IMG/VR virus record: IMGVR_UViG_3300034022_000267 | Location: 1 to 64,000 of that record | Strand: one strand, 5' to 3' | Source: a virus | Taxonomy: Duplodnaviria > Heunggongvirae > Uroviricota > Caudoviricetes | Length of the DNA stretch: 64,000 nucleotides | The notes under the pieces: model-generated | Databases searched by the model: none | Told to the model about the DNA's origin: nothing | What the model saw: only the letters and a program-made list of their open reading frames with translations | Shown: in pieces, positions 1 to 44,623 of the stretch | Position numbering within the stretch: position 1 is the stretch's first letter | Layout of the letters: each line of letters opens with the position of its first letter | Program-made: the position numbers and the translations under genes

Positions 1-124
1 AGGCTCAGTAGAGTGAAAACTCTCTAAGTGGTTAGAGTCTGTTAGTTTCCCTACTGCACGTTTGTCCATAGACGCTACACGAGCATAAGTAAAACCAGTT
101 AACCCAGGAATTGTTTGAATTGCC
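1..124 (-). CDS. 5' end (N-terminal ~41 aa) of a minus-strand gene running off the left edge; possible major capsid protein
   Basis: ATG at 124-122 (minus strand), open to the window edge (MAIQTIPGLTGFTYARVASMDKRAVGK...). It sits downstream of the portal and scaffold genes on the same strand, where the capsid gene lies in T7-like gene order. Confidence 0.3.
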
Positions 125-164: not shown

Positions 165-1430
165 TTATAAGAACCATGATTTTGAATTAGTACCACCATT
201 ACCTGATGGTCCACCTGTTTTAGCTTTTGTAACTTGTCTTGCAACTTCTCCAAACAGTTCGTTAGATTTCTTTGTAACGCCTGTTCTTTGTATGGTTGAT
301 AATGTAGGATCTTTTTCTAACATTTTTAAAAGAAGACCTATCTTAACTTTCTGTGCATGATTCTCTGGTCTTTTAAGATCCAATATAGCACGATCAAAAT
401 CAGTTAAGGTTTCTCCTGTTGGAGTTTTCCACTTATCAACTAATAAGAAGTCTTGTAGTTCTGTTGCTATTTTTGGATTGATAGGAATACCATCAAACTC
501 TTTTGCTTTCACCTTATCATTTAAGATGGATTGCACATTACTTATATACTGATTTCTAACTTGAGCTTTTTGTTGTAACTCTTGTTCAGACTTAGCTTCT
601 AAGTCTTGTAACTTAGCTGCTTCTTTTTTAACCAACACCTTGTGATGTTTAGTTGCAACGCTTTCTAAATCACCGTAGTTTTTAAGTCTTTCGATTTCTG
701 TTTCTACATCATCTGGATCAAATCCTTGATTAGTCAATGCTTGCTTCATTATTCTTTCTTGATTGTTCTCATCAGAAAGATCCATCTCAGCAAATCCAAC
801 AACATTGTTATATGTAGTGAAGTAATCTTTTGGATTAACTCCTTTTACAAATATGGCATCAAAAGCTTCTTGATAGTCTTCTCCAAATTGTCCAATGAAG
901 TTTTGTACTATTTCACTAGCACCTTTTTTCTTCTCTTCATTAAATCTTTCTAGAAATTCTTCTGCAGTGTTTACTGGTTCTTTATCATCATCATCAGATG
1001 TAAATACACCTAGTTTGTAAAGATCATTTGCAAGAGCAGTGAATTGTGTTCCTTCAGGAGCATCATCTACCTCTTCATCATTGGTATTTGATTTTGCAGC
1101 AGTTTTTGTTGGAGCAGGTGTGTCATTATCATCATTATCCTCATCTGGATCATCACTTAAGAAATCCGAGATCATTGATTGTCCTTCTAGTTTTTCATCA
1201 TCTGTTTTACCATCAACACTTAAAGGAGGAACAATTTCCTTACCTTTTGGTGAATCTGGTTTAGCAGGTGCAGCAGGAGGATTAGCTTCATTAATGATAG
1301 GAGTGACATCTTCTGGATTACCAGAAGCAGTTTCAGGTTCAAATAATCCCTGAAGTAATTCTTGGTTACCCATTCCCATTTCCATAGTACCTAAGATACC
1401 AAAGTTGCTTATATCTAAATTATCAGCCAT
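165..1430 (-). CDS. Putative scaffolding protein (acidic, coiled-coil)
   Basis: 421 aa, very acidic (D/E runs, DDPDEDNDDND) with a long predicted coiled-coil C-terminal half. It lies between the portal gene and the probable capsid gene. Confidence 0.4.
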   Translation of the reverse strand: MADNLDISNFGILGTMEMGMGNQELLQGLFEPETASGNPEDVTPIINEANPPAAPAKPDSPKGKEIVPPLSVDGKTDDEKLEGQSMISDFLSDDPDEDNDDNDTPAPTKTAAKSNTNDEEVDDAPEGTQFTALANDLYKLGVFTSDDDDKEPVNTAEEFLERFNEEKKKGASEIVQNFIGQFGEDYQEAFDAIFVKGVNPKDYFTTYNNVVGFAEMDLSDENNQERIMKQALTNQGFDPDDVETEIERLKNYGDLESVATKHHKVLVKKEAAKLQDLEAKSEQELQQKAQVRNQYISNVQSILNDKVKAKEFDGIPINPKIATELQDFLLVDKWKTPTGETLTDFDRAILDLKRPENHAQKVKIGLLLKMLEKDPTLSTIQRTGVTKKSNELFGEVARQVTKAKTGGPSGNGGTNSKSWFL

Positions 1431-1572: not shown

Positions 1573-4158
1573 TTAACCTTTTTTGTTATTACGTCCCTTG
1601 GCATTCTCTTTTGCAACAGCAAGATCGTTTGTCATATTCTCTCTAGCCACTTTTATTTTTTCTTGTTCTATATTCATTTTATCATTTGCTTGTTTGCTTT
1701 TAGATTGAATATCAGCTATTTTTAATCCATATTCTTTAGTAGCTTTATCTTGATCATGAGCTAGTCTACTCATCTCCATTACATCAGGAATTTCATTAGA
1801 ATTAGTGTCTTCAGAAGCAACATTGCCAAATCCTGTAGCTTGTATAATAGCAATTTCTTTTTTAGATAATCTATCAAGTTCTTTTTGATAGTTTTCATTA
1901 GCTATATTAGAATCATATTGTTGTTGAGCTTGTGCTAATTGTGCTTGAGATTGTTCTTGTTGTTGTTGAACTTTTTGTTGTTCAAGTTCTTGTGCTTGTT
2001 GTTGTTGAGCAACTTGTTGATCTCTGAGATCTTTAAACACTTTCTTCATCTCTCTCATAGACTTGGTAGAATATAATTCTATTACATCATAAAGTGTGCC
2101 ACCATTTTGGATAATAGCTTGAGACAATTGTCTAAGTTCATTAAACATTTGTGTATCTTCTGGTCTATTAGTAAGGAACACTTTCAAATCACGAAAAGAA
2201 AGATCTGATCCATTTACTTGTACAAATGCAGATTCTCCTTCAGATGTAATATAAGAAAGAGTAGATTGTGGTTTAGATGATTCTACATAAAGTGCAGCAT
2301 CTATAATACTTTGATACAGCTGTCCAAGCACATACTCGTGAGCCACAAATAAGGGCTCTGTTTGAGAGTAACTCTGCTGCATTGCAGTGTTGGTCCCTGT
2401 AGCTGATTCAGAGGCAGAAATAGACCCCATACGTTGTTTAGACATACCTACAAGTTCCCAACATTCTTGTTTCATTTGTTGTGCAAGAGTGTAACGAGAT
2501 TGTATCTCTTGCGTACGTGTAAGATCAAGAGCTGTAAACTGATTAAATGAACTAGGACTCTTTAAATTCTCAGGACTATCATCAATAAATACCACTCCTC
2601 TATTACGTGCTTCCATTTCCCAAATGTCAAGAGCATCTTGTGCATCTCCATCTTTAGGAATAGGAATATGTCTCAATGACATAAGTTGCACCTTACCTAC
2701 CTCTTTCTCAAGAAGCTTGTATAATTGATTCATACACACATTGTATATCACCTGAAAAGGTTTCATAAGATCTACTAAGCTTTTTGCTTCTGTATTCTTC
2801 ACCTCATATGTTGTTCCTATAATAGGACAATAGTTTAATAACTTGAATGGTTTAATATGGTAGATGTCTGGTCCAATCTTAGTTCCTTGGTACCATTGGT
2901 TAATCCATCCCCATTCTAATGATTGTTGTTGAGGATGTGTTCCTGATTTATAATCTTCAGTAACAAGTGTTGATTGCTCATTACCCATATCATCTATGTA
3001 AATCAATTTGCCTATTTTCTTTTTAGATATCCAATATGATCTAACAACAACATACTTATATCCAAATGAACTTACGTTATTGGTAAGACCTAAGAAATCT
3101 TTTAAGCCATCATTGTTTTCTTTCATTTCTGATTCAATGATCATTCTTGTCTGTAAAACAAGAGGGTCAAATGTATCATACATTACAGAATCTTGTCCTG
3201 GAACAGCATCTGGATTACCTAGATTGGATTCTCTTACATTGATTAATCCATAATCCTGTAAAGAACTTCTAAGGTGATCTATTTCTTCTTTAGTTAAGTC
3301 TGGAATAGATTCAATAATTTCAGACAGTTCCATAACTTGCACAGTGCCAGCAGCATAAGCTCCTTGTGCTCTTCCTGTAGGATCTGATATATATTTTCTA
3401 TCAGGTGTACTTAAGAACCAAGTGTTCTTTGGGTTAGCCACTTCAATGTTAAATCCAAGCTTTGAGTTATCTTCGTATATGTGATAGAACTCTCTAGCAG
3501 ATATTAACATATCTCTAAATGCATCTTCGCTCTTTTCTTTAATGTTAAACTCAGCTTTCTGACATGTAAGAACATGATTGGCCCATTTCTCAGCAATAGA
3601 TGTATAGCTATCTAACTGATCTTTAACTTGTTCCATTGTCATTTGCTCCAATTGCTCAGGTTCAATTTCTTCTCCTTGCATTGCTGCTTTAGCTGTAAGC
3701 TGTTGCTTCACTTGACTAATAACATATTGTTGAAGAGTGTCTGTTTTGAATTGTAGTTCTTCTGATTGACTATCATCATCAAAAGCTTTCACTCTAAATG
3801 TATCTGGTCTTTTAGATATCTCTCCTACAAGTTCATTAATAGGAGTGGTGATAATTGAATACATCTTTACATAAGCAGGAAGTTCTAGATCTGATGTAAG
3901 AACATCTGTAAAGCTTCTTACCTCTGGTTCTTGATAGAAATCTTCCATACGTAAGATTCCTTTCATAAGATCATAATTTGGAACAAATGTATCTCTATTC
4001 TTTATGTATTCAGCATATGCTTTATTGGAAAAATAATCCATTGTATTCTTTATCCAACTTTCATCTTCTTTTTCCTTCTCTGTTTTAAACTGATCAGGGA
4101 ATATGTTTAAGTATGCATACCTAATGGTAGCGTCTTTTGTATATCTAATTATTGCCAT
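1573..4158 (-). CDS. Portal protein
   Basis: 861 aa, immediately downstream of the large terminase on the same strand. It has a glutamine-rich helical C-terminus (QQVAQQQQAQELEQQKVQQQQEQSQAQLAQAQQQ) reminiscent of P22-type portal barrels. Size fits large podovirus portals. Confidence 0.55.
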   Translation of the reverse strand: MAIIRYTKDATIRYAYLNIFPDQFKTEKEKEDESWIKNTMDYFSNKAYAEYIKNRDTFVPNYDLMKGILRMEDFYQEPEVRSFTDVLTSDLELPAYVKMYSIITTPINELVGEISKRPDTFRVKAFDDDSQSEELQFKTDTLQQYVISQVKQQLTAKAAMQGEEIEPEQLEQMTMEQVKDQLDSYTSIAEKWANHVLTCQKAEFNIKEKSEDAFRDMLISAREFYHIYEDNSKLGFNIEVANPKNTWFLSTPDRKYISDPTGRAQGAYAAGTVQVMELSEIIESIPDLTKEEIDHLRSSLQDYGLINVRESNLGNPDAVPGQDSVMYDTFDPLVLQTRMIIESEMKENNDGLKDFLGLTNNVSSFGYKYVVVRSYWISKKKIGKLIYIDDMGNEQSTLVTEDYKSGTHPQQQSLEWGWINQWYQGTKIGPDIYHIKPFKLLNYCPIIGTTYEVKNTEAKSLVDLMKPFQVIYNVCMNQLYKLLEKEVGKVQLMSLRHIPIPKDGDAQDALDIWEMEARNRGVVFIDDSPENLKSPSSFNQFTALDLTRTQEIQSRYTLAQQMKQECWELVGMSKQRMGSISASESATGTNTAMQQSYSQTEPLFVAHEYVLGQLYQSIIDAALYVESSKPQSTLSYITSEGESAFVQVNGSDLSFRDLKVFLTNRPEDTQMFNELRQLSQAIIQNGGTLYDVIELYSTKSMREMKKVFKDLRDQQVAQQQQAQELEQQKVQQQQEQSQAQLAQAQQQYDSNIANENYQKELDRLSKKEIAIIQATGFGNVASEDTNSNEIPDVMEMSRLAHDQDKATKEYGLKIADIQSKSKQANDKMNIEQEKIKVARENMTNDLAVAKENAKGRNNKKG

Positions 4159-4420: not shown

Positions 4421-6451
4421 TTATCTAAACATTTTATGTTTGTTACTATTAAACATTCCCTTTGATTCAGAGAATAGTGAATTTTTTTTCTTTTTAGAAT
4501 AGAGAGAAGTTATCCTTACATCTTCAACTCCACCTGTTCTTCCCATTATAGGATTTAATTTCATCGCCAAAGATACAGCTAATTCTGCAGCAATGATTCT
4601 ATCAAAGTTGCCTGTCTCATTATATTGTATCATTTCTTCTAATAATACAGGATCAAATATCTTTGCCATCCCTTTTGTTTCAGAAATGACATTACCCTCA
4701 TCATCTTTTTCTACATGTATAACTTCTTCTGTGTATGTCTTTAAACATCCATGCAGAAAGTCTCGTATTTTTTCAGCAGATCTATGTATTCCATAATCCC
4801 TTCTAACTGTTGTATTAGGAACTATTTCTTTTAACCAATCTGGTTGTCTTTCTAAATAATGTGCATCTCCTTTTGAGATCATATAATCTATAAAAGAGAT
4901 TTCATCGTTTTCACACAATGTTCTAGCATTGTAGTACTTAATCAATAATCTTGCCTGCTCTTCCCATGTTTCTTTCTTGTCTGGTCTAGCACAATAACTA
5001 GCAACAAACATATCTTGATACTTTTCTCCTGCAATAGCATGCATTCTTTTGTATATATATACAGATCCTAATGAACTTGAATAAGCAGACTTACCTTGTC
5101 TATAAGGATCGACTCCTGCAACATATAATCCATAAGGAGGTGTGTCAATTGGAAACTCATATATAACTACAGGAGCATCTTTTTGATCACTGTTCTTTAA
5201 TGGGAAATTTGATATAGGAAGCTTATCTGTAAACTCATGTTTCACACCTTGTCCATCATCATATAAAACAACAGGAGTACCTGTTCTTTCTTGTGCTAAT
5301 AGCTTGGCTTTCTGACGTTTAGCTGCTTCTATATCAAATATGTTTGTATCTTCATTTAAGAATATGTCATCCACCTCTTGTGGATAATACATCTTTTCTT
5401 TTAAATATGCAAGTCTATCACCAGCTTTTTTTAATCTGTCAAGATTATCATTTGTAATCTTATCTGCTTTTTCTAAATTAGAAACAAGCATCTTTACATT
5501 ATGTAATTCAGAATCTTCTGGTTGTTCTAAATAAGCTCCTAATGTAGAATCTTCTTTAGCTTCCATTCTATATTTATGGGAGATGAATAGTCCATGGATT
5601 CTTTGATCATCCTTTGCACTATTATATTCCAGGAAGTTGAAATTGGCTACATCAAACATTAAGCTTTTTGCATCCATGAAATTCTGCATATCTCCACCTG
5701 TACCTGTAAGTATAGGGCTACAGCCCCAACCAAATGGTGTGGTGAAACCTGGTGTAGCAGCTTGTAATCCTCTGAGGAAATTACCCTTACCTATCTCATC
5801 AATGATAAGTCTTCTTGGTTTTGTACCTGCAATAGCCTCTTCATTATTACCACCATCTAAGTTACGAATAAGGATCTGAGAAAAGGGGATTCTCTCTCCT
5901 GCTTTTGTCTTGATCCCTAATGTAACTTGGTTTTTCCAGTTGTCTTCCACTCTCTGCCATCTCCAGGCTTCAGGTAGGAAGTTTAATCCTTTGTCAATCT
6001 TATCTGTGATAAGCTTTATATCGGGAGCATTCAATCCTGCTATAATGTTCTGGGAATTCTCATCGAATGTTGCCCCATGACCTATATAGGAACTCTCAAT
6101 TACTGACTTAGCCAAACGTCTAATACCTAGTATCACTAGGCCTTTCTTTTCTGTATGTGCTCTATCTATTTCATTTGTGATTATCCACTCATTATCACGT
6201 AGATATGGATTAGCATATTTTTGATTAATCCTTCCACGATCATCTATAATATCCACCTCTGTATTCCAGAAGTTTAAATGCCAATATAGAAAAGGGTTAA
6301 TATAAACTCCTCCCATTGTACAGCCATCAATACATAGTTGTTTATGGAAAGCATAAAATGCTTTATACTCTTCTGAGTCCTTTGATGGAACTCTCTTTTG
6401 ATTGATAAACCAATCTCCGTATTCAATACTCTGTAAGCCATCTATTATCAT
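4421..6451 (-). CDS. terL: Terminase large subunit
   Basis: 676 aa with an N-terminal ATPase (deviant P-loop GIRRLAKS, Walker B-like LIIDEIGK) and a C-terminal RNaseH-like nuclease with an acidic cluster (VAGVDPYRQGKS). Typical TerL architecture. Confidence 0.8.
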   Translation of the reverse strand: MIIDGLQSIEYGDWFINQKRVPSKDSEEYKAFYAFHKQLCIDGCTMGGVYINPFLYWHLNFWNTEVDIIDDRGRINQKYANPYLRDNEWIITNEIDRAHTEKKGLVILGIRRLAKSVIESSYIGHGATFDENSQNIIAGLNAPDIKLITDKIDKGLNFLPEAWRWQRVEDNWKNQVTLGIKTKAGERIPFSQILIRNLDGGNNEEAIAGTKPRRLIIDEIGKGNFLRGLQAATPGFTTPFGWGCSPILTGTGGDMQNFMDAKSLMFDVANFNFLEYNSAKDDQRIHGLFISHKYRMEAKEDSTLGAYLEQPEDSELHNVKMLVSNLEKADKITNDNLDRLKKAGDRLAYLKEKMYYPQEVDDIFLNEDTNIFDIEAAKRQKAKLLAQERTGTPVVLYDDGQGVKHEFTDKLPISNFPLKNSDQKDAPVVIYEFPIDTPPYGLYVAGVDPYRQGKSAYSSSLGSVYIYKRMHAIAGEKYQDMFVASYCARPDKKETWEEQARLLIKYYNARTLCENDEISFIDYMISKGDAHYLERQPDWLKEIVPNTTVRRDYGIHRSAEKIRDFLHGCLKTYTEEVIHVEKDDEGNVISETKGMAKIFDPVLLEEMIQYNETGNFDRIIAAELAVSLAMKLNPIMGRTGGVEDVRITSLYSKKKKNSLFSESKGMFNSNKHKMFR

Positions 6452-14240: not shown

Positions 14241-14413
14241 TGACTTATATATTTATATCATACCTAGTTATGCTGGGTATGATGATTGAAAGTTACAAAG
14301 ATGTAAAACGTACACCAATTGAAGCTTGGTTTATGTTTGTCTTTAGTCCATTTATTTTACCAATACTTATTGGTGTAATGTTAGCTGAAAATAAACCAAA
14401 ACAATAAATTTAT

Positions 14414-14656: not shown

Positions 14657-14817
14657 TAAAGGAACATTAGTAGCATCTACTAATACATGTAGACATATAT
14701 TGTCTAAAAGGCTAATAATAGAAGTGATATATAATTTCAGAAATGGAGTTGTAAGAGAAAGAACAATAGACATAAGAAAATCAGTAGAACAATAAACAAT
14801 TTAATTCCTTAATAATT

Positions 14818-15315
14818 ATGAATGCATCAAAGTCAGGTGGTATATTCACCTTTGATCATGGTCAAAAAAAGCTTAACAAAGCAATTGGTGTAGAACAAGC
14901 CTATTTAGATGATCTTAGTGATCAAGTAAAAGAAACTATGAAGAATTTCTTATTTGATGAAAATAGAGAAATAAAAGAAGACATTTCTCCAAGTCAATTG
15001 GTAGAGATTGTAGCAAGTGAATATAGCTATTCACAATTAGTGGTAATGGCTTCTTTCTATTTACAAGACAAATTAGATGGATTTGCCACTTCATTAGAGA
15101 AGAAAATGGATGATATGAAATCAGCAATTAAAGCTATTAGATTAGATGCTGACGATATTCCACCTCACATTAAAGAGATTCTTGATGGTCTTACAGGAGG
15201 AGAAAGTAAATCTACTGCATTAGATGGTGATTCATTACCACAAGAGCTTAAAGACTTTCTTAAGAACTTAGCTGAAGAGCAAGAGAAACAAGATGGAGAT
15301 GGTGATGATGACTAA
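14818..15315 (+). CDS. Hypothetical acidic protein
   Basis: 165 aa with an acidic C-terminus (DGDGDDD). Both recurring upstream motifs are present. Followed by a terminator hairpin. Confidence 0.4.
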   Translation: MNASKSGGIFTFDHGQKKLNKAIGVEQAYLDDLSDQVKETMKNFLFDENREIKEDISPSQLVEIVASEYSYSQLVVMASFYLQDKLDGFATSLEKKMDDMKSAIKAIRLDADDIPPHIKEILDGLTGGESKSTALDGDSLPQELKDFLKNLAEEQEKQDGDGDDD

Positions 15316-15324
15316 CATTAACAA

Positions 15325-15351
15325 GGAGCATTGTAATGATGCTCCTTTTAT
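15325..15351 (+). terminator. Rho-independent terminator
   Basis: ggagcat-tgtaatg-atgctcc followed by TTTTAT. Confidence 0.5.
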
Positions 15352-15360
15352 ATTAAAGCT

Positions 15361-15783
15361 ATGACGAAATATAGATTTAAAACTGAAGAAGAGTTTAAAA
15401 GAGACAGTCAATGGGATTATATTCATAATGTACCAAGTGGTTGGAATTCAAGTCGTAAAATGAATGAATACATAGGACAAGACATTGATGATGATTATAA
15501 TGTCAGAATTGAATGTAAACTGTCATTTACCAATGGTAGATGGACATTTTCATCAAAAGCTTGTATTTTAAACTCAATAGAGCTATCAGAAGAAGAAACA
15601 ACAGAAATTTTAAAACAAATTAAAAACAATTCCTTAATAACAAAAAGAAAAATGAAATCAACAGCAACTAAATCAGTAAAGAAAAATCCAGTGGGAGACA
15701 AGTTCGTATTTATGGACAAAACAGTTAGCATTTTAAACGTAGGATTCTCTACACGTAAGAATGTTATTCTTTATGGTCCAGGT
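15361..15783 (+). CDS. MoxR/CobS-like AAA+ ATPase, exon 1; ends inside the Walker A motif (…NVILYGPG)
   Basis: The ORF stops two codons after …ILYGPG, the first half of a P-loop. The rest of the P-loop (GHGKSE) begins the ORF at 16749. Joining 15783 to 16749 gives GPGGHGKS, a perfect G-x4-GKS. Both exons are in phase 0. Confidence 0.55.
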
Positions 15784-16748
15784 GAATAAAAATTCTTTTT
15801 AACTTGCAGGGTAATATAATTTATATTATCTTAGCAGCATGAAAGTAATAATATATGCATTAGTAGATCCTATAACTTGCAAGGTGAGATATATAGGAAG
15901 AACTTCAGTGAGCATGAATGCTCGATTATCCAAACACATACATGATGCCAAGTATCATAAGAGAAAGACACACAAAGAAGATTGGATAAGAAGTTTACTC
16001 AAAATAAACTGTAAACCTTTAATCAGAAAGTTAACTGAGATTGAAGGTTGGGAAAAATCATATGAGTTAGAAGTTAGTCTTATTGAAAAATATAAAGACA
16101 GACTTACAAACTATTATGATAAGGGTCCTGGACATTTAAGACAATGTAGAGAAGAAGATAGAATTAAAATATCTAACACTCTTAAGTCTAAATATGCTCA
16201 AGGAACAATTGATAAACCAGTAGGTAAAACTATATATGTTTATAATAGAGATGGTTCATTTTATAATGAATATGTTTCTGTTAGTGAAGCTTGTACCAAA
16301 TTAAATGTTGGTAGAACTACAATAAAAAGACATATTAATGGTCATCATCATTTATTTAACTCTCCAACTGCAGATGGCAGAAAGAGATTTTTAGGTGGTA
16401 ATTATCAATTCAACACAGTTAAAGTTGAGAGAATGCATGATTATACTTCATGAAGAATACGCCGTCTATAGTAGTAATATTATAGATAATTAGTGGGCAA
16501 AAACGGTGAAAGCTAAACAGTGATGTATGCCAATACCGTGCTAAACATAGATAGTAACATATTTATGTCAGTGTAACGCATAGTGGGTGAAACTAGAAAT
16601 AGAATATAAACCACCACGAGTGTCCGCCATCCTAACAAGTAATGTTGAGGATGAAAATATATGCTAAACTGGGTTGGATTGACCAACCGATGCAAATGAG
16701 GGAAACCTCCAGAGGTGAAGATAAAAAGCTTCACGTTAATAACTATTG
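15784..16748 (+). mobile_element. Putative group I self-splicing intron (~965 nt) carrying a GIY-YIG homing endonuclease gene
   Basis: It interrupts an ATPase gene exactly at the P-loop. The upstream exon ends in U and the intron ends in G (omega-G). A GC-richer, ORF-free 3' segment (16454..16748) contains a CCGUGCUAAA element resembling T4 td/nrdB-type (IA2) intron cores. A free-standing homing endonuclease ORF sits inside. Confidence 0.5.
15839..16453 (+). CDS. GIY-YIG homing endonuclease (intron-encoded)
   Basis: 204 aa. N-terminus IYALVDPITCKVRYIGRT is a GIY-YIG motif. The basic C-terminal region is consistent with a DNA-binding domain (I-TevI-like). Confidence 0.7.
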   Translation: MKVIIYALVDPITCKVRYIGRTSVSMNARLSKHIHDAKYHKRKTHKEDWIRSLLKINCKPLIRKLTEIEGWEKSYELEVSLIEKYKDRLTNYYDKGPGHLRQCREEDRIKISNTLKSKYAQGTIDKPVGKTIYVYNRDGSFYNEYVSVSEACTKLNVGRTTIKRHINGHHHLFNSPTADGRKRFLGGNYQFNTVKVERMHDYTS

Positions 16749-17642
16749 GGCCATGGTAAATCAGAAATCACTCTTGATTTCTTAAAAGCTAAAGGTATTG
16801 ATCCATTCATTCAAACAATGGGTACAGGTATGACAACAGACAGATTGTTTGGTGGTCTTGATATACCAACATTCGAAACAACAGGTAAGATTGAATATCT
16901 TGTACATAATAGTTTCATGAACCATGAATATGTTATATTCGAAGAATTGTTTGATGCTCCTGATTTTATCCTAGAGCAATTGAAAGATATTCTATCATCT
17001 GGTATATTCAGAAATGGTACACAGATATTTCCTATTGAGACTAAATTCATCATCTGTTGTACTAACAGAACTCGTGATGAATTCTCTAAGAATATGTCAT
17101 TAAAAGCTCTTATGGAACGTTTCCCATTAGAATTGAATGTTATATGGGATAACTACACAGAGATCTCTTATAACAAGCTATTGGAGAGTAAATTTGGTGA
17201 AGGAGAAGTTGATCCTGTTATTCCTTATTTATTACAGGAATATGCTAAGAACAGCATTACCATCAGTCCTCGTGTTGCTGTAACAGCATATCAAGTGTAT
17301 GATGAGTGTGGTCCAGAATCATTAGCATTCATTGCTGAATTTGCTAAGAAACCATCATTGATTGCTGAAGCTATCAAGAAGTTTGAGAGCACAATGAAGT
17401 TTAGAGAGTTGTCTTCAACTATTACATATAGCATCGAAACTCTAAGTCACTTACCATTAGTGTCAAGAGAAGATGAGAAAATGTACAAAGAAGCTCTTAA
17501 CAGTCTTAGTATGCAATTGAAAGACATTCAAGGCCTAACTGTAGGTGATGATGTTGCTAATGTGCATGCACAACTTGTTAAAGCAGCTAAGTCTTCTGTA
17601 GACAAGTTTACTAAGAACTTAACTATCGCTGCATTTATCTAA
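16749..17642 (+). CDS. MoxR/CobS-like AAA+ ATPase, exon 2
   Basis: Starts GHGKSEITLDF... and continues with an AAA+ core (ICCTNRTRDE resembles sensor motifs). The listed ORF start 16746 is a TTG directly after an in-frame TAA and is not a real initiation site. The spliced product is predicted at ~439 aa. Confidence 0.55.
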   Translation, partial: GHGKSEITLDFLKAKGIDPFIQTMGTGMTTDRLFGGLDIPTFETTGKIEYLVHNSFMNHEYVIFEELFDAPDFILEQLKDILSSGIFRNGTQIFPIETKFIICCTNRTRDEFSKNMSLKALMERFPLELNVIWDNYTEISYNKLLESKFGEGEVDPVIPYLLQEYAKNSITISPRVAVTAYQVYDECGPESLAFIAEFAKKPSLIAEAIKKFESTMKFRELSSTITYSIETLSHLPLVSREDEKMYKEALNSLSMQLKDIQGLTVGDDVANVHAQLVKAAKSSVDKFTKNLTIAAFI

Positions 17643-18876
17643 TGAGTATATGGGATGATGGGTATGACGATTACTATGGTAGTCGTTATGCTCCAACCTA
17701 TACTACTAAAAAGAGTAAAGGTGGATGGAAAGATAAATATGGTGGTAGTGGGTGGAGTAAAAAAGGAGGATGGAGTTCCTTTACTTGGAGTTATGGTAGT
17801 GATACAGATAACAATGATGATCTTGTTGTTAAAGATCCTGTTACATATATAACACCAACCACTTCAGAGATCAGAAAGAAAGTGAGAGCTCCTAAACAAA
17901 CATCTATTGATACAATCAAAGAATTAGCACGAGTGTGTTATTTCAAAATGATTGATGAAAAAGACTATCTAGTTGAGCAATATGCAGATTATGATAATCT
18001 ACCTGATGAAGAAAAAGGTGCTATATCAACAAAGAAAGAATTGTACGATAGTATATTTGATCAATATATTCCTGGATTCTCTCCATTAGACCAAGCTATA
18101 TCTATTTATTTGAAGTTACAAAGTACTGATAAAGAGAAAGCTGATCCTAGGGATGATGAGGATGATGAAGACTTGGATATGAAGAAAGGCTTAGACTTTG
18201 ATAGAAATTTGTATTCTGATCCAAACATCAATGAACAACTAGAGCTTAATGAGCTTAGTAAAGATAGAAAGATGGAGATTATGAACCATCTATCTCTTGT
18301 TGGTCAGTTTGGTAGTGAATTCAAAGTGGAAAAGGAAATATCTGAAAAGATAGTTGCTAATTCTGATCAGTATGCTGCAATGATTATGAGAGACTACTCT
18401 CAAATTCATATGATGAATCTAATGCAAAAGGTATATCCTCATTTTAGAAGTAAGTTCTTAACTAAAGACTTGACAGTGAGTGTTCCTGTTGATAGAAAAG
18501 AACAGATTCAAAAGATTATCATCATTCTTGATTACTCAGGTTCTATGGGCTATGATGATAAACAGATATGGGTTAATGCTATATTAATCGACAGGTTTAA
18601 GTATGTCATGAGAGGAGAAGCTGAAGTGTTCTTTAGTTATTTTGTTGAAAATACAAGTGATCTTGATTTCCAACATATCAAGAACAGAGAAGATGTTATT
18701 GCATTTTGGCAAACATTCTCTAATGAACCAGGTGGTGGTATGACAGAAGTTGGTGATATGGTTGAACATATTTCTAATGAGATACAAGCTAAAAGATTAT
18801 GTAATCTTGATGTAGATCTTTCTGAAGAAAAGCCTGAAATCCTAATTATCAATGATGGTCAATTTGGCCTAGACAT
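17642..18876 (+). CDS. vWA-domain protein (CobT-like partner of the MoxR ATPase), exon 1
   Basis: MIDAS motif ILDYSGSM (DxSxS), a downstream Thr (GGGMTEVGD) and Asp (ILIINDGQ). Its start overlaps the ATPase stop (ATGA). The annotated stop at 18878-18880 follows ...GQFGLDI. Confidence 0.55.
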
Positions 18877-19839
18877 ATAGTAATATATGTCCGTAATTCC
18901 TTTAATTGCTGGGACCCCTAAGTTACACCTACGAGGGTAATATGGAAATCAGCAGCGAAATAATGTTATTTTATCTTGCATATCATTAATACTATTTGTA
19001 TCTTTGTTGTATAATCATAAATTATGAAAAAATACACATTTGATACAGATTATTTTAAACAAATTAACACAGAAGAAAAAGCCTATTGGTTAGGTTTTAT
19101 TGCAGCCGATGGTTATCTTAACAAAAGAGGTAACACATTAGGAATTTGTTTAGATATTAGTGATAAATCACATTTAGAAAAGTTTAAAACAAGTATAGCA
19201 TATACAGGTAATGTATTTACTAGAACATCTCAATACTCAAAAGAGCATAGAATTACAGAAAAAGCTGTAATTGAGATATATAGTACAGAGTTATCAAAAG
19301 ATATTAATACATATGGATTAGACTATGAAAAATCTAAAACACTTAGTACTATTAATAATGTACCAAAAGAACTAATGAATCACTTTATCAGAGGTCACTT
19401 TGATGGTGATGGATGTTTATTCTTCGAAAAAGGAAGAAAAGAAACACATAAAGGTTCTCCAGGTATAACAATAGTAGGAACTAAATCATTTTTAGAATAT
19501 ATATGTGAATTTATTCCAGATTCTCCAAAATCATTACAATATGATAAAAGAACTGCTGGAACTTACACTTTATATTTAAAATCTATTAAACGATATAAAA
19601 AGTTTACAGATTATATATACAAAGATGCAACAGTGTATCTTGATAGAAAGTTTTTAAAACATCAAGATATATTAAAAAAGATAGAATAACAAGAAACGTT
19701 CAACGACTATTGCTGAAATGCAAGTACACTCAAGTGAGTGGAAAAGGGGAACATCCTACGAGGATGGAGATATAGTCTGATCTTATAGGAAACTATAAGC
19801 AGTTCTTAAGAGAACGCTATTGTATTAACGAAACAATAG
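18877..19839 (+). mobile_element. Putative group I intron (~963 nt) carrying a LAGLIDADG homing endonuclease gene
   Basis: The 3' part contains GAGAUAUAGUCUGA, close to the P7/P9.0 region of the T4 td intron (GAAGAUAUAGUCUGAAC, recalled from memory). It ends in G 19839. The upstream exon can end on U 18876 with a possible P1 between gacat (18872-18876) and atgtc (18887-18891). Splicing keeps the reading frame into the 19847 ORF. Confidence 0.5.
19024..19689 (+). CDS. LAGLIDADG homing endonuclease (double-motif, intron-encoded)
   Basis: 221 aa with two LAGLIDADG motifs: WLGFIAADGYL and FIRGHFDGDGCLFF. Confidence 0.75.
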   Translation: MKKYTFDTDYFKQINTEEKAYWLGFIAADGYLNKRGNTLGICLDISDKSHLEKFKTSIAYTGNVFTRTSQYSKEHRITEKAVIEIYSTELSKDINTYGLDYEKSKTLSTINNVPKELMNHFIRGHFDGDGCLFFEKGRKETHKGSPGITIVGTKSFLEYICEFIPDSPKSLQYDKRTAGTYTLYLKSIKRYKKFTDYIYKDATVYLDRKFLKHQDILKKIE

Positions 19840-20029
19840 GAACATAATGCAAGATAGTATCCATACAGATAAATTCCCATACAAGGTGAATGCTGTATCA
19901 TTGATGGAATTCAGTGATGAACTAAAAGACTTGTGTAATGCTACAGGTGGTAAACAAATTGAGATTACAAATGATCTTCGTGTGTTTACATATTCCACTG
20001 AAGCAGGTAAACAAGAAATTAAGAGTTAA
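19840..20029 (+). CDS. vWA-domain protein, exon 2 (C-terminal ~62 aa)
   Basis: An in-frame stop at 19826-19828 bounds the exon on the 5' side. Joined to 18876 the frame continues ...GQFGLD-MNIMQDSIHTDKFPYK... The exact junction is uncertain. Confidence 0.4.
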
Positions 20030-28555: not shown

Positions 28556-30517
28556 ATGAAAGAAGAAGTAATAATATATGACATAGAAACTATGCAAGAA
28601 CTATTCTTAGTTGTATGTATGGTGCCTGGTAAGATAGGTAAAAGCTTTCAAGTGTCTAAATGGAAGAATCAACTTGATGCTTTTGTTAGATATACAGAAG
28701 CTCATAGTGATGCTTATTGGGTGGGTTATAATAACCTACGCTTTGACAGTCAAGTTGTTGAATGGATCTTACGAAACTATGAGAAGTGGCATGAGTTAAC
28801 TAATCTAGAGGTATGTGCACTAATTGCACAGAAGGCTGCAGATGTTATCCATGATGCTAATTATGATGTATTCCCAGAATATAGAGAGCATGAACTAAGC
28901 CTTAAGCAAATAGATTTATTCAAAATCAATCATTACGATAATAAAAATCGTATGGTGAGCTTGAAGAGACTAGAGTTTGAAATGGATCTAGAGAACATAG
29001 AAGAAATGCCTATACATCACACTAAGGTGAATATAACAAAAGAAGAAGTAGAGATGACTATTGACTATTGTTATAATGATGTTGATGCTACTTATGAATT
29101 CTACAAGGTTACAACAGGTAATTGTGATCATCCTCTATACAAAGGAAACAATCAAATAGAGTTGAGACAAGATATTGAAGAAGAGTTTGGTATACCATGT
29201 CTGAACTATTCAGATAGTAAGATTGGTGATGAGATGATTAAGAAGTATTATTGTTCTGAGAAAGGAATTCAATACAAAGAACTTCCTAGAAAAGGATATT
29301 TCAGAAAGAGCATTGATGTAAAGAATTGCATTGCTAAGTATGTTGTATTTGAAACTCCTCAACTGAAAGAGTTTCTGAAAAAGATTAATAAACTGCAGCT
29401 TGGTCTGCAAGATGATTTCAAAGAGCATATAGATTTCCATGGAAATATGTATTCTTTTATGAAAGGTGGTCTTCACACAGAGAATAGTCCTAAGATATTT
29501 GAAGCTGATGAAGACTATGAGATAATCGATTGGGATGTGTCTAGTTACTATCCTGCCATCATTATTAACAATGGTAAGTTTCCTGCTCATTTAGGCAAAG
29601 AATTCCTTAGGGGATACAAACAGATGTTTGAGAAGAGATTGGAGCTTAAACCACTTGCTAAGAGTGATAAAAAGATTAAAGGAATTGTTGGAGCACTTAA
29701 ACTTGCAGTTAACTCTGTATATGGTAAGTCATCTGATATGTTATCATGGATATATGATAGGCAACTCACTATGTTCACCACAATTACTGGTGAATTATCA
29801 TTGATGATGCTTATTGAGAAATATGAAACCAATGACATACATGTGATCTCTGCAAATACAGATGGTGTAACTATTAAGATTAAGAAAGATCAAATTCCTT
29901 TAATGCATGAAATCAATGCATGGTGGTGTGAACTCACTCAATATGAGCTTGAGAGAACAGACTACTCAAAGATTATCTTTAGTACTGTGAATGATTATTT
30001 AGCAATTATGACCAATGGAGAAATTAAAAAGAAAGGTGATTTCCTTACTGACTTTGAGTTACATAAGAATAAATCAGCCAGAGTGGTTCCTATTGCTCTT
30101 GAGCAGTGGTTTGTACATGGTGTTCCTGTGGATACTACGATACGTAACCATACTAATCTTTATGACTTCTGTTTAAGACAGAAAGCTACTAGAAGTTTCC
30201 ATTATGAAGGAACTAATAGGTCAACTGGTAAGAAAACAGTGTATGATAAACTCATACGTTATTATGTATCCAATGAGGGAGACAAAATCTTTAAAATTAA
30301 AAATGAAGAGTGTCAAACTAGAGCTGCCGCAATAAGTCAAGTGGAAGCTGGTGAGTGGGTATGTAAAGTTTGTAATTTTCTACCAAAGAACAGTGCTGTT
30401 GATAATGTCAATTATGATTATTATATTGAGAAAGCTAACAGAATAGTCACAAAGATTAACACTGAAGGAAGAAGAATTAAAACAGTGTACATTCCTAACC
30501 AATTAAATCTATTTTAA
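28556..30517 (+). CDS. Family B DNA polymerase with 3'-5' exonuclease
   Basis: 653 aa. Exo I IYDIET, Exo II YNNLRFD, Exo III YCYNDVD; pol motif A DWDVSSYYPAII, motif B KLAVNSVYGK, motif C-like SANTDGV. Compact size, comparable to small phage polB enzymes. Confidence 0.75.
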   Translation: MKEEVIIYDIETMQELFLVVCMVPGKIGKSFQVSKWKNQLDAFVRYTEAHSDAYWVGYNNLRFDSQVVEWILRNYEKWHELTNLEVCALIAQKAADVIHDANYDVFPEYREHELSLKQIDLFKINHYDNKNRMVSLKRLEFEMDLENIEEMPIHHTKVNITKEEVEMTIDYCYNDVDATYEFYKVTTGNCDHPLYKGNNQIELRQDIEEEFGIPCLNYSDSKIGDEMIKKYYCSEKGIQYKELPRKGYFRKSIDVKNCIAKYVVFETPQLKEFLKKINKLQLGLQDDFKEHIDFHGNMYSFMKGGLHTENSPKIFEADEDYEIIDWDVSSYYPAIIINNGKFPAHLGKEFLRGYKQMFEKRLELKPLAKSDKKIKGIVGALKLAVNSVYGKSSDMLSWIYDRQLTMFTTITGELSLMMLIEKYETNDIHVISANTDGVTIKIKKDQIPLMHEINAWWCELTQYELERTDYSKIIFSTVNDYLAIMTNGEIKKKGDFLTDFELHKNKSARVVPIALEQWFVHGVPVDTTIRNHTNLYDFCLRQKATRSFHYEGTNRSTGKKTVYDKLIRYYVSNEGDKIFKIKNEECQTRAAAISQVEAGEWVCKVCNFLPKNSAVDNVNYDYYIEKANRIVTKINTEGRRIKTVYIPNQLNLF

Positions 30518-40709: not shown

Positions 40710-43001
40710 ATGATATTAGAAAAACAGAAAGAAGCAAATGTCCTAGAAGAAGGACAAGCACAAGAATCAATTGGAATGTCCCTAGACTTAGATTCTGCAC
40801 AAATATTGATGCAGATGTTAAGTAAGAATTTATATTCTGATGATATAGGCTCTGCTATCAGAGAATGTGCAAGTAATGCATTAGATAGCCATAGAAGAGC
40901 TGGTGTGGACACACCAATTGTAGTTTCATTTAAAGCATCTACAACTAACAATTATGAGTTTTGTGTAGAAGATTTTGGTATAGGCTTAGATGCTGATGAT
41001 GTGAGAAACATTATTAGTAAATATGGTAAATCTACCAAGAGAAATTCTACAACAGAATTAGGTATGATGGGTCTTGGTTTTAAAGCTCCTCTTGCATATT
41101 CTAGTAGTTTCTACTTTGTATGTAGAAAAGATGGAATGGAACGTAAGTATATGATGTATGAAGGAGAAGATACTAATACTATTGATCTTTTATATGAAAC
41201 AAAAACAGAAGAACCTAATGGTGTAAAGATCATTATTCCTGTTAAGTTTAATGATAGATGGAGTTTTATGAGGAAAATCAAAGAACAACTTTGTTATTTT
41301 GAGAGTGTGTATTTTGATGTACCAGAAGATTCAAGCATTACTAATGATTTCTTAATATCTAGACATACACATTTTCAATTCTCTGAAATGTCTACAGACA
41401 CAAGATTACATATATGTTTAGACAATGTGTATTATCCTTTAGACTTTGAGAAGATAGGAATTGATAGAATTGATTTTCCTATAGCTCTTAGATTTTCATT
41501 GAGTGATGGATTATTTCCTACACCAAATAGAGAATCTTTGCGTTATACACAAGAAGCTAAGAAGATAATTATGGACAAGCTTGCTCAAGTGGCAGATTAT
41601 TATGTTGAGACATATAATAAATCTTTAAACGAAGGAAGTGATATTAAATCTATGATTAATTATCTTGAGAAGAATGGACATTATATTGAAATGTCTAGTA
41701 GAAAGTATAAAATTGATAATTTTCTTAGATATGCCAGTGTTAAACCACTTATACCAGAATTAGAAGGAGTGAAGTTACTCAACTTTCCTTCTTTGTATAA
41801 AATGTACAAACAAAACATTCTAGTTGATGCTTTTCCTTCTAAATTTTCTTTAAGATATAAAAGACTGTCAAGTGCAGATAATTATGTATATGGATATAAC
41901 TTAGAGAGTGTGTGTAATGGACAAGCTAAAGTTTGGGTATATGATGATAGAATTCCTCAGATCAAGAAAGATTACCTAAGAGCTACATGTGTAGAAAATG
42001 AACACAATTTCATTGTTAAAAGAGCTGCTCCTATGAAACTAGGAGTTCCTGCTAAGTTTGATCTTAAAACTTACTATCACTTATTAGCACTTAAGAGTTA
42101 TCCAAAAGATCAATGGAGAGATGTCATTAAAGAGTATCAGCACATTATGTCTATGATTGAAGAAACTTTCATTGATCTTGATGCTCTTAATGTTCCTCAA
42201 GACTTTATTGATAGCAAGAAGAAAGCAAAGATTAGTAAAGCTGGTATAGCTAGTACTAAAAGATTAAAGCTACAAGGAGAAATTGTATGTAAAAAAGGTG
42301 TAGATCTACTTAGATATAATGGTGGTAAAAACTGTAAGTTTGATTCTCAAATCTACAAGTTAGAAAATCTTGAAAGTGATAAGAACTTAAAGATTTACAC
42401 TCATCATGATGACTGTCTAAAACTTGATCCTTTATATGGTATGATGTCAAAACAAAAAATGGAAGTGATTACATTCTCTAGTAGAGAACTAAAGATTGTA
42501 GAACAATTAAACATACACAATTTAATATCTTACGAAAAGTTTATGGAAGGTAAAACAGCACCATTTAAAAGAATCATTACATCTGTATTAATAAATGAGA
42601 TGATGGGTCTTTATAGAAGCACATTTGATAGGATTGATGCTGTAAGATATGTATCTACTGATTTAGCTAATAAACTAGATAGATTATCTCAATATAGAAG
42701 AGATAACTATGTATCAACAGATCATGATTTAAGAAAAGCTATGTTAGAAGTGGCATTAGAACATAACTTGTTTGATCCACAAATCTATACAGAGTATATA
42801 GAGATGTTAGACATCTTTGATAAGCTTACATTCTTAAATCCTGTATGTGCAAGATTGGGATACACTCGTGAAGATGATCCAATGATACCAGTGATAATTG
42901 ATCTTTTCAAGTATTACAAACATAGAGTGGATCTAAAGCATTATAATATCAAAATCAATGATGAAGTGCTTACAGAAGAAACAATAGATCAATTAGCATA
43001 A
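40710..43001 (+). CDS. Hsp90/HtpG-family GHKL ATPase homolog
   Basis: 763 aa. The N-terminus ILMQMLSKNLYSDDIGSAIRECASNALDS matches the Hsp90 helix-1/N-box [32 protein letters not shown]. G1 box VEDFGIGLD, G2 box GMMGLGFKAPLAYS. YMMYEGED...GVKIIIPVK parallels Hsp90 YVWES...GTKVILHLK. Confidence 0.55.
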   Translation: MILEKQKEANVLEEGQAQESIGMSLDLDSAQILMQMLSKNLYSDDIGSAIRECASNALDSHRRAGVDTPIVVSFKASTTNNYEFCVEDFGIGLDADDVRNIISKYGKSTKRNSTTELGMMGLGFKAPLAYSSSFYFVCRKDGMERKYMMYEGEDTNTIDLLYETKTEEPNGVKIIIPVKFNDRWSFMRKIKEQLCYFESVYFDVPEDSSITNDFLISRHTHFQFSEMSTDTRLHICLDNVYYPLDFEKIGIDRIDFPIALRFSLSDGLFPTPNRESLRYTQEAKKIIMDKLAQVADYYVETYNKSLNEGSDIKSMINYLEKNGHYIEMSSRKYKIDNFLRYASVKPLIPELEGVKLLNFPSLYKMYKQNILVDAFPSKFSLRYKRLSSADNYVYGYNLESVCNGQAKVWVYDDRIPQIKKDYLRATCVENEHNFIVKRAAPMKLGVPAKFDLKTYYHLLALKSYPKDQWRDVIKEYQHIMSMIEETFIDLDALNVPQDFIDSKKKAKISKAGIASTKRLKLQGEIVCKKGVDLLRYNGGKNCKFDSQIYKLENLESDKNLKIYTHHDDCLKLDPLYGMMSKQKMEVITFSSRELKIVEQLNIHNLISYEKFMEGKTAPFKRIITSVLINEMMGLYRSTFDRIDAVRYVSTDLANKLDRLSQYRRDNYVSTDHDLRKAMLEVALEHNLFDPQIYTEYIEMLDIFDKLTFLNPVCARLGYTREDDPMIPVIIDLFKYYKHRVDLKHYNIKINDEVLTEETIDQLA

Positions 43002-43066: not shown

Positions 43067-44623
43067 ATGGAACACAAATTTTTATCATTAGATTGGTTCA
43101 AAGAAACCGCAGAAAATGCAATTGCTAATGTTGTAGCTAACAAGTTAGAAAGCTTAATGGGAGAAGAACAACAAGGTTCTGATCCTGCTATTGCTAAAAA
43201 AGTTGAAGGAAAACCATATTTTAGTATGAAGATGGTAAATGACACACTTACAGTGGTATTGAACGATGGTGCTATTATTAGTAAACCTAATGCATGTGAA
43301 GATGATTTCTATGCTATATCAAAAGCTACATCTGTAGAAGAAATATTAGTTATTATATCTTCTGCTGAAGTGATGGCTAATGTAGAGAAAGCAAAAGCTG
43401 AAGCAGCTAGAATCAAAGCATTACAACAAGGTATTGAAAGATTATCTATAGTTGATGATTTTACTATAAAAGGTAACTCAGTTTATCTAAAAGGCACATC
43501 TAGAAGTATGCCTCAATTATTAGTTGAGAAGTTTATAGAAATAGTATATAGAGTACACAATACTGACTTAGAATGTGGATTAGAACAATTGCAAGACATG
43601 TTGAACGAAGATGATGATTACATGGCCCATAAGAACTTCTTTATGTGGTGTTGTCTTAATCCAAGAGCTGAGGTTGCTAATGAACTATATAGATTCTTAA
43701 CAGACAATAGTTTCAAAATTACTAAACAAGGATTCTTTGTAGCTCTTAGAAATGTTGTTACTGTTCATGGATCTCCAGAACTAGTTCACTTCGTAAGTAA
43801 TGCTTACAACAAAGTGAAAGCTGTGTGGAAGAAAAATCCAGCTGAGTATACAGTTTTCTTAGAAGATGGTGAATACAAACTTATACATGATGATAAGTTA
43901 TTTGAAACTATAATTGTAGATGATACAACATGTACATGTTGTGATGGAAATGGTGGATGGTATACTGAGTGGAATGATGAAATGGAAGATGAAGAATGGG
44001 AAGACTGTGAACTATGTGATGGAACAGGAGAAGTGGAAGAATATGAATATGAACAAACAGTTCCTGTAGACCATGGTGAAAGAATAGGTGGTTTGACAGA
44101 ATTGTATTTAGATCTTCCTAATAGAGAAGAGAATAGATTCACTGATAACTGGACTAAAACATTTGACATTCGTGTTGGACAAGTGGTCTCTATGCCTAAA
44201 GAAGAATGTAACTGGAGTACACAAGATTGTGCTACAGCAGGTCTTCACTTTGCTGGTTATACAGCTCCTTATGTTCTTTGTGGTGATACCACTGTTATGA
44301 CTCTTCATAATCCTATGAAGGTTGTGGGTATTGGTGCAGTGAAAGGTAGATGTTGGGAATATCTCCCATTCATGCTAACCACTGTTGCTGAAGCAGATCA
44401 GATTATGAATGATAGAAGCTTTGATTTCTTACAATTAGATGAGCAATATGCTATTCGTGAATTAGAAAGCTTAGCTGAAAAAGCTAAAGAAGGATTTGCA
44501 GTTGAATCTAAGAAATATGAATTCAATATGCCAGCTATTTCTGCATCAGAAATCAACATGATTGTTGCCAATCTTAGTGAGATGAAAACTAAGATAAAAG
44601 ACAGAGTGGTTACAATTAAGTAA
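43067..44623 (+). CDS. Protein with two DnaJ-type CxxCxGxG zinc-finger repeats
   Basis: 518 aa. CTCCDGNGG and CELCDGTGE flank an acidic segment. No J-domain HPD motif seen. Confidence 0.4.
   Translation: MEHKFLSLDWFKETAENAIANVVANKLESLMGEEQQGSDPAIAKKVEGKPYFSMKMVNDTLTVVLNDGAIISKPNACEDDFYAISKATSVEEILVIISSAEVMANVEKAKAEAARIKALQQGIERLSIVDDFTIKGNSVYLKGTSRSMPQLLVEKFIEIVYRVHNTDLECGLEQLQDMLNEDDDYMAHKNFFMWCCLNPRAEVANELYRFLTDNSFKITKQGFFVALRNVVTVHGSPELVHFVSNAYNKVKAVWKKNPAEYTVFLEDGEYKLIHDDKLFETIIVDDTTCTCCDGNGGWYTEWNDEMEDEEWEDCELCDGTGEVEEYEYEQTVPVDHGERIGGLTELYLDLPNREENRFTDNWTKTFDIRVGQVVSMPKEECNWSTQDCATAGLHFAGYTAPYVLCGDTTVMTLHNPMKVVGIGAVKGRCWEYLPFMLTTVAEADQIMNDRSFDFLQLDEQYAIRELESLAEKAKEGFAVESKKYEFNMPAISASEINMIVANLSEMKTKIKDRVVTIK

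Follow-up and report, generated by a model that had tools for sequence, protein, structure and literature searches.

An uncultured tailed phage, recorded in IMG/VR as IMGVR_UViG_3300034022_000267, carries at positions 15361..17642 an ATPase gene that appears to break off in the middle of its P-loop, together with a downstream open reading frame (ORF) that begins with the missing half. The question raised by this locus is what separates the two halves and whether they still encode one protein. We analyzed the 64,000-nt stretch formed by positions 1 to 64,000 of that record (hereafter the window), and our findings suggest that the interruption, 15784..16748, is very probably a mobile group I intron similar to the td intron of phage T4 (subgroup IA), inserted into the P-loop codons of a phage gene for a MoxR/AAA_5-type ATPase. 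Phage group I introns that carry a GIY-YIG homing endonuclease are a well-known, classical class of mobile element, and an earlier interpretation of this locus (the sequence-only reading) had already proposed one here.

The host gene and the exact insertion

The ORF at 15361..15789 ends in ..KNVILYGPGE-stop, that is, in half a P-loop, and both the ORF list and the translation agree with the sequence-only reading on this point. The ORF called from 16746 opens with TTG GGC CAT GGT AAA TCA, read as (TTG)M-GHGKSE, and runs to 17642. Its start had been described as lying directly after an in-frame TAA; the MGHGKSE opening stands, but the placement was slightly loose, as a single codon, CTA, lies between the TAA at 16740-42 and the TTG at 16746. 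When U15783 is joined to G16749 the sequence becomes ..ILYGPGGHGKSEI.., with both exons in phase 0, and the G-x4-GKS motif is restored as proposed. The spliced product has 438 amino acids, and a contiguous GPGGHGKS (Walker A) is present only after splicing. This protein matches the Pfam families bpMoxR (PF20030, 48.6 bits for a cut-off of 27, residues 110-285) and AAA_5 (PF07728, 36.8 bits for a cut-off of 22, residues 134-266), and both domains cross residue 141, where the exons meet, which bears out the assignment of the host gene to the AAA+ ATPases.

Homologues tell whether the two halves exist as naturally separate proteins. The spliced protein matches 870 of them, and the best 120 are all single proteins of 405-453 amino acids, with identity of up to 98% over the full length. 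In these best matches the Walker A motif is contiguous, and the junction peptide KNV[IV]L[YFH]G[PA]GGHGKSE is unbroken in 120 of 120.

The ends of the insert can be read from an intron-less contig, L001. BLASTN aligns window positions 14046-15784 with L001 1692-3424 and window positions 16749-18861 with L001 3424-5536, and the window coding sequence, once spliced, has the 1317 nt of the L001 gene and is 97.8% identical to it, with 29 mismatches and no base gained or lost. At the site L001 reads CCAGGT↓GGACAT (the arrow marks an insertion site or junction throughout), and the intron-less allele reads ..TATGGTCCAGGTGGACATGGTAAATCA.. around it. The insert measures 965 nt, as had been estimated, with a one-base ambiguity in its placement (G15784 or G16749). 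We place it at 15784..16748 because the group I rule, by which U is the last base of the exon and G that of the intron, settles this ambiguity; U15783 and G16748 are the bases that the sequence-only reading had named. The same intron occupies the same ATPase site in two further contigs, L019 and L021. Excision of the insert restores the host gene exactly, as judged from L001 and the homologues, and the agreement of the locus with the predicted junction lies far beyond chance.

Intron-encoded endonuclease and ribozyme core

The insert was said to contain a complete GIY-YIG ORF, and the evidence on the 204-amino-acid protein supports that description. Its NUMOD1 domain scores 29.7 bits, above the cut-off, and within a family of 22 homologues GIY-YIG (PF01541) matches 14 (best E 2.1e-7) and NUMOD1 matches 21. 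Residues Y6, Y18, G20, R29, H33, E78 and N91 are invariant in the 22 homologues, and we take them to be the catalytic set of GIY-YIG enzymes. An AlphaFold model of the endonuclease (predicted local distance difference test, pLDDT, 84) retrieves with Foldseek the chains of PD-T4-3 and the GIY-YIG domain of UvrC, with probabilities of 0.9-1.0 and E-values of 0.017-0.2, and also the C-terminal (DNA-binding) region of I-HmuI. PD-T4-3 is listed as a restriction endonuclease specific for 5-hydroxymethylcytosine (5hmC), and we assume it to be a GIY-YIG enzyme. A phmmer search of the endonuclease against PDB sequences returned nothing, and a profile search against solved structures gave weak matches only (a repeat protein, I-HmuI and a TyrR-homologue regulator). 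Taken together, the ORF at 15839..16453 reads as a GIY-YIG/NUMOD1 endonuclease with all catalytic residues, for which cleavage activity is predicted.

The 3' 295 nt of the insert (16454..16748) had been described as ORF-free, GC-richer and endowed with a T4-type core element, and each of these features was recovered. No plus-strand ORF of at least 40 amino acids lies wholly inside the segment; two ORFs overlap it, one on the minus strand and one running into exon 2. Its GC fraction is 0.373, compared with 0.298 in the endonuclease ORF and 0.314 in the window. The element ACCGUGCUAAAC lies at 16535..16546, and the T4-type td intron has AAUCCCGUGCUAAAU at the equivalent structural place. In an unconstrained minimum-energy fold this segment takes the canonical P2-P9.2 layout (z = -3.71 relative to 200 shuffles), and four GNRA loops occur in the core (P2 GUAA, P5 GUGA, P7.1/P7.2 GAAA and P9.1 GAAA). 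A group I core can therefore be modelled as the sequence-only reading required, including a P7 with a bulged C and a P3/P7 pseudoknot; P7 is the expected guanosine-binding helix, pseudoknotted with P3. The search with Rfam models that had been suggested succeeded in part: Intron_gpI (RF00028) matches 16457..16690 along its full length (model 1-253) at 27.2 bits, E 3.6e-5, in a 341-nt local search. The P7.1/P7.2 stretch appears as an insertion relative to RF00028, and its inner P7.2 hairpin varies among relatives (CUUA/UAAG, CUG/CAG and CUUUGG/CCAAAG). Its presence and the local similarity to T4-type td introns agree with the td-like character noted earlier.

Relatives of the core provide evidence that its pairings are conserved. 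An exact 18-mer from P7 gathered 17 viral contigs, and the endonuclease search added L019, a 113-kb phage contig with the same intron at the same site. From these relatives we built a covariance model, R1, with 185 positions and 43 pairs; MAFFT alignments A2 and A3 had the window P2 one column off register, and the model-based alignment was used instead. Full-length cores in 20 loci reach 102-214 bits with R1, which detects one copy in the window. In the R1 alignment of 18 distinct relatives, 92.5% of the paired cells are filled by proper pairs, compared with 32-42% when partners are slid by 1-3 columns; 25 of the 43 pairs vary on both sides, compared with 7-13 when slid; and the covariation score is 0.347, compared with about 0.06. 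None of 500 shuffles reaches the observed values. The last 288 nt of the insert, from the guide to the terminal G, make up a ribozyme core (P2-P9.2) that is conserved and covarying.

A comparison that is independent of the model is offered by the window and L019. Identity amounts to 71.6% in exon 1, 80.8% in exon 2, 87.6% in the endonuclease gene, 96.4% in the leader and 99.0% in the core, where 3 of 295 positions differ and two of these form a compensatory change from U-A to G-C in P4. Synonymous sites have diverged by 0.25 in the endonuclease gene and by 0.91 in exon 2, and the ribozyme is under much stronger constraint than the silent sites of the neighboring ORF. Because the core is almost identical while the exons are so diverged, the intron is younger than the split of its two host genes, which means a recent lateral transfer.

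The position of the guide sequence led to a refinement of the group I reading. The 55-nt leader before the ORF contains no guide sequence, and no G there precedes a complement of the exon's ..AGG. A guide is found after the ORF instead, where GCCGUCU is identical in L021, L024 and the Yersinia phage phiR1-37. In relatives, the aligned GCCG pairs with exon ends CGGU, UGGU, ACGGU or GCGGU (P1 of 4-5 bp), and where the junctions of relatives were verified, the partner of the splice-site U is the guide G that corresponds to G16461. For instance, the exon end CGGU of L003 pairs with GCCG just upstream of P2, and the ligated polymerase exons of L003 are colinear with the window's uninterrupted polymerase (..NSAYG↓KTSD..). 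A further helix, P1a, joins the leader at about +7 to +18 with 7-9 nt ending 2-4 nt before the guide. It occurs in every lineage, at the equivalent relative position in L019, L021, L022 and L003, with a sequence that differs from one to the next: AUUCUUU/GAAGAAU in the window, UUUAUUGA/UCAAUAAA in L021, CUCUUUU/AAAAGAG in L022 and AUUGUUAAA/UUUAGCAAU in L003. Since the guide follows the ORF and the long-range P1a helix closes around it, the ORF would lie in the terminal loop of an extended P1.

These elements suggest the following course of splicing. In the pre-mRNA, the exon end GGU (15783) would pair with GCC (16461-63) to form a short P1, which the covarying extension helix (15792-98/16452-58) would stabilize while looping out the endonuclease ORF. 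A free guanosine held in P7 would attack after U15783, and the freed exon would then attack after G16748, joining GGU to GGC. With a stop codon two codons inside the intron, unspliced RNA would yield only a 142-amino-acid stub. Once translated from its intron ORF, the endonuclease would cut intron-less ATPase alleles of co-infecting phages, and repair would copy the intron into them (homing).

Table. Features of the interrupted ATPase gene and sites occupied by related intron cores (positions are those of the window; all helices are predicted)
Feature	Position or contigs	Strand	Details
Exon 1, MoxR/AAA_5-type ATPase	15361..15783	+	Residues 1-141, ends L-Y-G-P-G (GGU); colinear with L001 to 15783/84
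P1 5' strand GGU	15781..15783	+	U15783 is the splice-site U, pairs with G16461; 3 bp only
Candidate group I intron, 965 nt	15784..16748	+	Starts GAAUAA (in-frame stop two codons in), ends ..CUAUUG (terminal G16748); exact insertion relative to L001
P1a 5' strand AUUCUUU	15792..15798	+	Pairs with GAAGAAU 16452..16458, closing the ORF-holding loop
Putative homing endonuclease gene, 204 amino acids	15839..16453	+	N-terminal GIY-YIG, C-terminal NUMOD1 helix-turn-helix; intact
P1a 3' strand GAAGAAU	16452..16458	+	Overlaps the endonuclease UGA stop codon
Internal guide region GCCGUCU	16461..16467	+	GCC pairs with exon GGU; GUCU can extend P2 via AGAU 16484..16487
P2 hairpin	16468..16483	+	AUAGUA-GUAA-UAUUAU; minimum-energy fold; 6/6 pairs vary on both sides (helix 1)
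P3 5' strand GUGGGCA	16493..16499	+	Pairs with 16621..16627; helix 2: 98% paired, 2 pairs vary on both sides
P4/P5	16503..16539	+	P4 16503-08/16534-39; P5 16511-13/16529-31 plus distal stem, GUGA loop; fold and helix 3
P6 hairpin	16545..16568	+	16545-53/16560-68; helix 4: 8/9 pairs vary on both sides
P7 5' strand A-(C bulge)-GCAUA	16576..16582	+	Bulged C16577; aligns to R and S elements, RF00028
P7.1/P7.2-type insertion, 35 nt	16583..16617	+	Outer stem GUGG/CCAC, inner hairpin CUA-GAAA-UAG; helices 5 and 6
P3 3' strand UGUCCGC	16621..16627	+	Fold and family alignment
P8 hairpin	16628..16653	+	Helix 7: 4/6 pairs vary on both sides
P7 3' strand UAUGCU	16660..16665	+	Partner of 16576..16582; Rfam alignment
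P9, P9.1, P9.2	16672..16737	+	P9 16672-88; P9.1 16698-709, GAAA loop; P9.2 16712-37, conserved AUAAAAAG loop; fold
Exon 2, ATPase	16749..17642	+	Starts GGC CAU GGU AAA UCA (G-H-G-K-S); L001 colinearity
MoxR-type ATPase, window site	window, L019, L021		Family core
MoxR-type ATPase, 9 nt downstream of window site, GG[HY]G↓KS	L020, L024		Family core
Classical AAA ATPase site GPPGCG↓KT, UGCGGU↓AAAACU	L022, L023		Family core
DNA polymerase site UACGGU↓AAAACC	L002, L003, L006, L010-L012, L015, L016		Family core
rIIB site GGGCU↓ACAU	L008, L013, L017, L018		Guide changed to GGCCU, 4-bp P10, LAGLIDADG ORF in P5 loop

Weighing the intron against rival explanations

Several observations weigh against a functional group I intron at this site. 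The local Rfam score of 27.2 bits is below the gathering cut-off of 50 bits, which is a database criterion rather than a structural definition; whole-window Rfam scans, run at the gathering threshold and at E <= 1, miss the intron and give only a transfer-messenger RNA (tmRNA), and a search of 15700..16850 (1151 nt) gave no intron match. Taken alone, the endonuclease reaches just 19.0 bits with PF01541 (E 0.0017, cut-off 22.6), and none of its weak Foldseek E-values is better than 7e-3. Pairing is favored in the covariation alignment, which was fitted to the model, and P7 shows neither variation nor covariation in the family, in part because an exact 18-mer from this helix served to collect the relatives. 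P1 at the ATPase site has just 3 bp (GGU/GCC), and no convincing P10 is found in this register. Both splicing and homing are deduced from sequence.

A second register of P1 also has to be considered, in which AGGU pairs with GUCU and a P10 forms between GGC and GCC. It would give seven contiguous pairs with the ligated exons, including the 3-bp P10. However, relatives with verified junctions pair the aligned GCCG with CGGU, and GUCU..AGAU is kept as an extension of P2 in L021, L024 and phiR1-37, so we rank this register second, after GGU/GCC.

Among the explanations that do without active splicing, the leading one, itself improbable, is that the insert derives from an intron but has lost the ability to self-splice, leaving a pseudogene or a gene that needs a protein helper such as a maturase or host factor. 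The short P1 would fit, given the 4-5 bp of relatives at other sites, as would a shift of the intron by 9 nt from the Gly↓Lys site of L020 and L024 with its guide unchanged, and the endonuclease shows moderate constraint only (ratio of nonsynonymous to synonymous substitution, dN/dS, 0.44). Yet the core has accumulated three changes, two of them compensatory, relative to exons that differ by 19-28%, which implies ongoing selection for the fold. Moreover, three diverged phages have the intron at this site (the window, L019 and also L021, the last with a core identity of 74%), the reading frames of both exons are intact and under purifying selection (dN/dS 0.12 in exon 2), and the covarying P1 extension could compensate for the short P1.

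It is more improbable still that the ATPase is naturally split, with a free-standing endonuclease gene between two separately translated halves and no splicing. Gene callers do give three separate ORFs, and genes split by endonucleases are established for T4-like phages, but here the P-loop itself is broken (GPG↓GHGKS), the only start of the second half is a TTG one codon after a stop, the 295 nt from the endonuclease ORF to exon 2 are taken up by a complete covarying ribozyme core, and the ends of the insert obey the group I rules (U before, G last). We give the least credence of all to a misassembled or chimeric metagenomic contig: the window is probably metagenome-derived and has no megablast match in deposited phage genomes, but the same architecture and site recur in independent assemblies, L019 from IMG/VR and L021 from Logan, and endonuclease homologues are present on dozens of contigs. 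Two other kinds of element were also considered. An intein is excluded by the in-frame stops inside the insert, and a group II intron is unlikely, as no such RNA family matched and the ORF encodes an endonuclease and not a reverse transcriptase.

Known counterparts, relatives and genomic setting

The closest classical counterpart is the T4 td intron with I-TevI, which we take to be a group I intron of subgroup IA2. Like the window intron, it interrupts a phage protein gene, encodes a GIY-YIG endonuclease with a C-terminal helix-turn-helix, and has its guide followed at once by a P2 with a GNRA loop; the J3/4-P4 and P4'-J (..CCGUGCUAAA..) sequences are common to both, as are extra helices between P7 and P3'. 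R1 matches the two halves of T4-type td weakly, one at 20.1 bits with E 7.8e-5 and the other at 13.5 bits with E 0.0044, and subgroup IA2 is a candidate alongside IA1 and IA3. The two differ in that the td ORF follows P6, between the core halves, whereas the window ORF precedes the entire core and is placed in the extended P1 loop. The td host gene encodes thymidylate synthase, not a MoxR-type ATPase, and overall core similarity is low.

A nearer match is found in phage phiR1-37, whose topoisomerase II (GyrA-like) gene is split into g327, the endonuclease gene g328 and g329, with the parts in the same order as in the window: exon, leader, ORF, core, exon. Its guide GCCGUCU followed by P2-GUAA is identical to that of the window, its exon ends in ..UGGU, and its core is 76.5% identical over 171 nt (R1 99.8 bits). 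It differs in the host gene, with the junction ..TTIG↓RYHPHGD, and in an endonuclease of 312 amino acids, and the record annotates separate genes and no intron. Similarly, in the topoisomerase II genes of the Bacillus jumbo phages AR9 and PBS1, the P7'-P9.2 part is 84% identical to the window over 99 nt, and R1 gives 64.9 and 56.2 bits on two copies; in AR9 the match falls in a stretch omitted from the three-piece joined topoisomerase II coding sequence. Host gene and phage lineage differ from those of the window, and the 5' core is more diverged. The window segment 16672..16737 is 84-87% identical to intron segments of the Bacillus phages AR9, PBS1 and BpSp. Neither megablast with the region nor tblastn with the spliced ATPase matched any deposited phage genome, which indicates that there is no close cultured relative.

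In uncultured relatives, with core identities of 62-99%, related cores occur in genes for DNA polymerase, classical AAA ATPase and rIIB, and with the GyrA-like copies of the deposited phages included, most sites follow ..GGU and many are Gly↓Lys junctions. The window core is closer to that of L024, at the shifted site (82%), than to that of L021, at the same site (74%). The lineage shares the guide GCCG, and the copies in MoxR-type and classical AAA genes (L019-L024) also have endonucleases of the same family as that of the window; this comparison covered the ATPase-gene copies, and the DNA polymerase intron of L003 likewise carries a GIY-YIG ORF. The window's own DNA polymerase gene (28556..30517) is uninterrupted between 29725 and 29726 (..NSVYG↓KSSD..), a position that the family occupies in at least eight related contigs and that represents a potential, vacant homing site in the same genome. 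Contigs L010 and L012 have a further insertion of about 980 nt at the equivalent of window 29542↓29543, 183 nt upstream of the family intron, and therefore carry two insertions in the DNA polymerase gene. L007 holds three copies of the core in one 4.4-kb contig, on both strands: 785..973 (+), 3364..3563 (-) and 1..115 (-). The DNA polymerase intron of L016 (4179..4429) has an extra insertion of about 60 nt in the P7.1/P7.2 hairpin, and L020 has one of about 100 nt at the same place; this peripheral element appears to tolerate large insertions.

That related cores so widely follow ..GGU in genes unrelated to each other suggests that the intron now and then jumps to a look-alike site; the sites concerned include the P-loops of two ATPase families, NSxYG↓K in DNA polymerase, ..IG↓R in the GyrA-like gene and the 9-nt-shifted P-loop position in the window. 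A broader proposal, which we put forward tentatively and with some doubt, is that one intron lineage moved repeatedly between unrelated phage genes through short sites of the form ..(C/U)GGU↓AAA(A).. at Gly↓Lys junctions. Ordinary homing, in which the insertion point is set by the donor's exon flanks, would hardly produce a 9-nt shift with the guide unchanged; such a shift agrees with reverse splicing directed by the guide, or with irregular repair after the endonuclease has cut off target.

The gene that follows the ATPase carries a second group I intron of 988 nt (18862..19849, between 17642..18861 and 19850..20029), and its product has a DYSGSMG motif and looks like a von Willebrand factor A (vWA) protein. 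In this intron a LAGLIDADG ORF (19024..19689) lies between P6 and P7, and Intron_gpI matches the two halves at 18850..19030 (20.1 bits) and 19680..19799 (43.4 bits). The 5' exon ends in ..GAUGGU and the intron in ..AAUG; the core belongs to a different lineage from that of the ATPase intron, and L001 lacks this intron too. Elsewhere, the window encodes a phage tmRNA (21508..21843, plus strand; Rfam 74.7 bits; ARAGORN tag peptide ANAQIEANMNKVFSLISEDVVIVGLAA). It comes from an uncultured tailed phage and has genes for a portal protein (1573..4158, minus strand), a large terminase (4421..6451, minus strand), rIIA (40710..43001) and an rIIB-like protein (43067..44623), as well as the DNA polymerase. 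Its terminase reaches at most 40% identity with the enzyme of Leptolyngbya phage Lbo-JY46 and 31% with those of Cellulophaga phages, and related contigs are 111-116 kb long.

In annotation, one ATPase gene, join(15361..15783, 16749..17642), with an intron-encoded endonuclease replaces three ORFs, and the next gene likewise needs a join. Because gene callers and default-threshold Rfam searches miss both introns, metagenomic phage genomes probably hold more split genes of this kind than are reported. A known rule is that the codons targeted by homing endonucleases specify functionally critical residues (PMC3984707); the ATPase fits this rule and extends it to the P-loop of a MoxR-type protein in an uncultured phage lineage. 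What takes the locus beyond the routine is that default tools are blind to the intron, that its ORF lies in a predicted extended P1 loop, and that the family recurs after ..GGU, including the 9-nt shift. A multi-site family with a short motif complementary to its guide offers a natural data set on how group I introns reach new sites, and, if the proposed movement between unrelated genes is true, the family would provide unusually clear evidence from nature that group I introns transpose ectopically in protein-coding genes.

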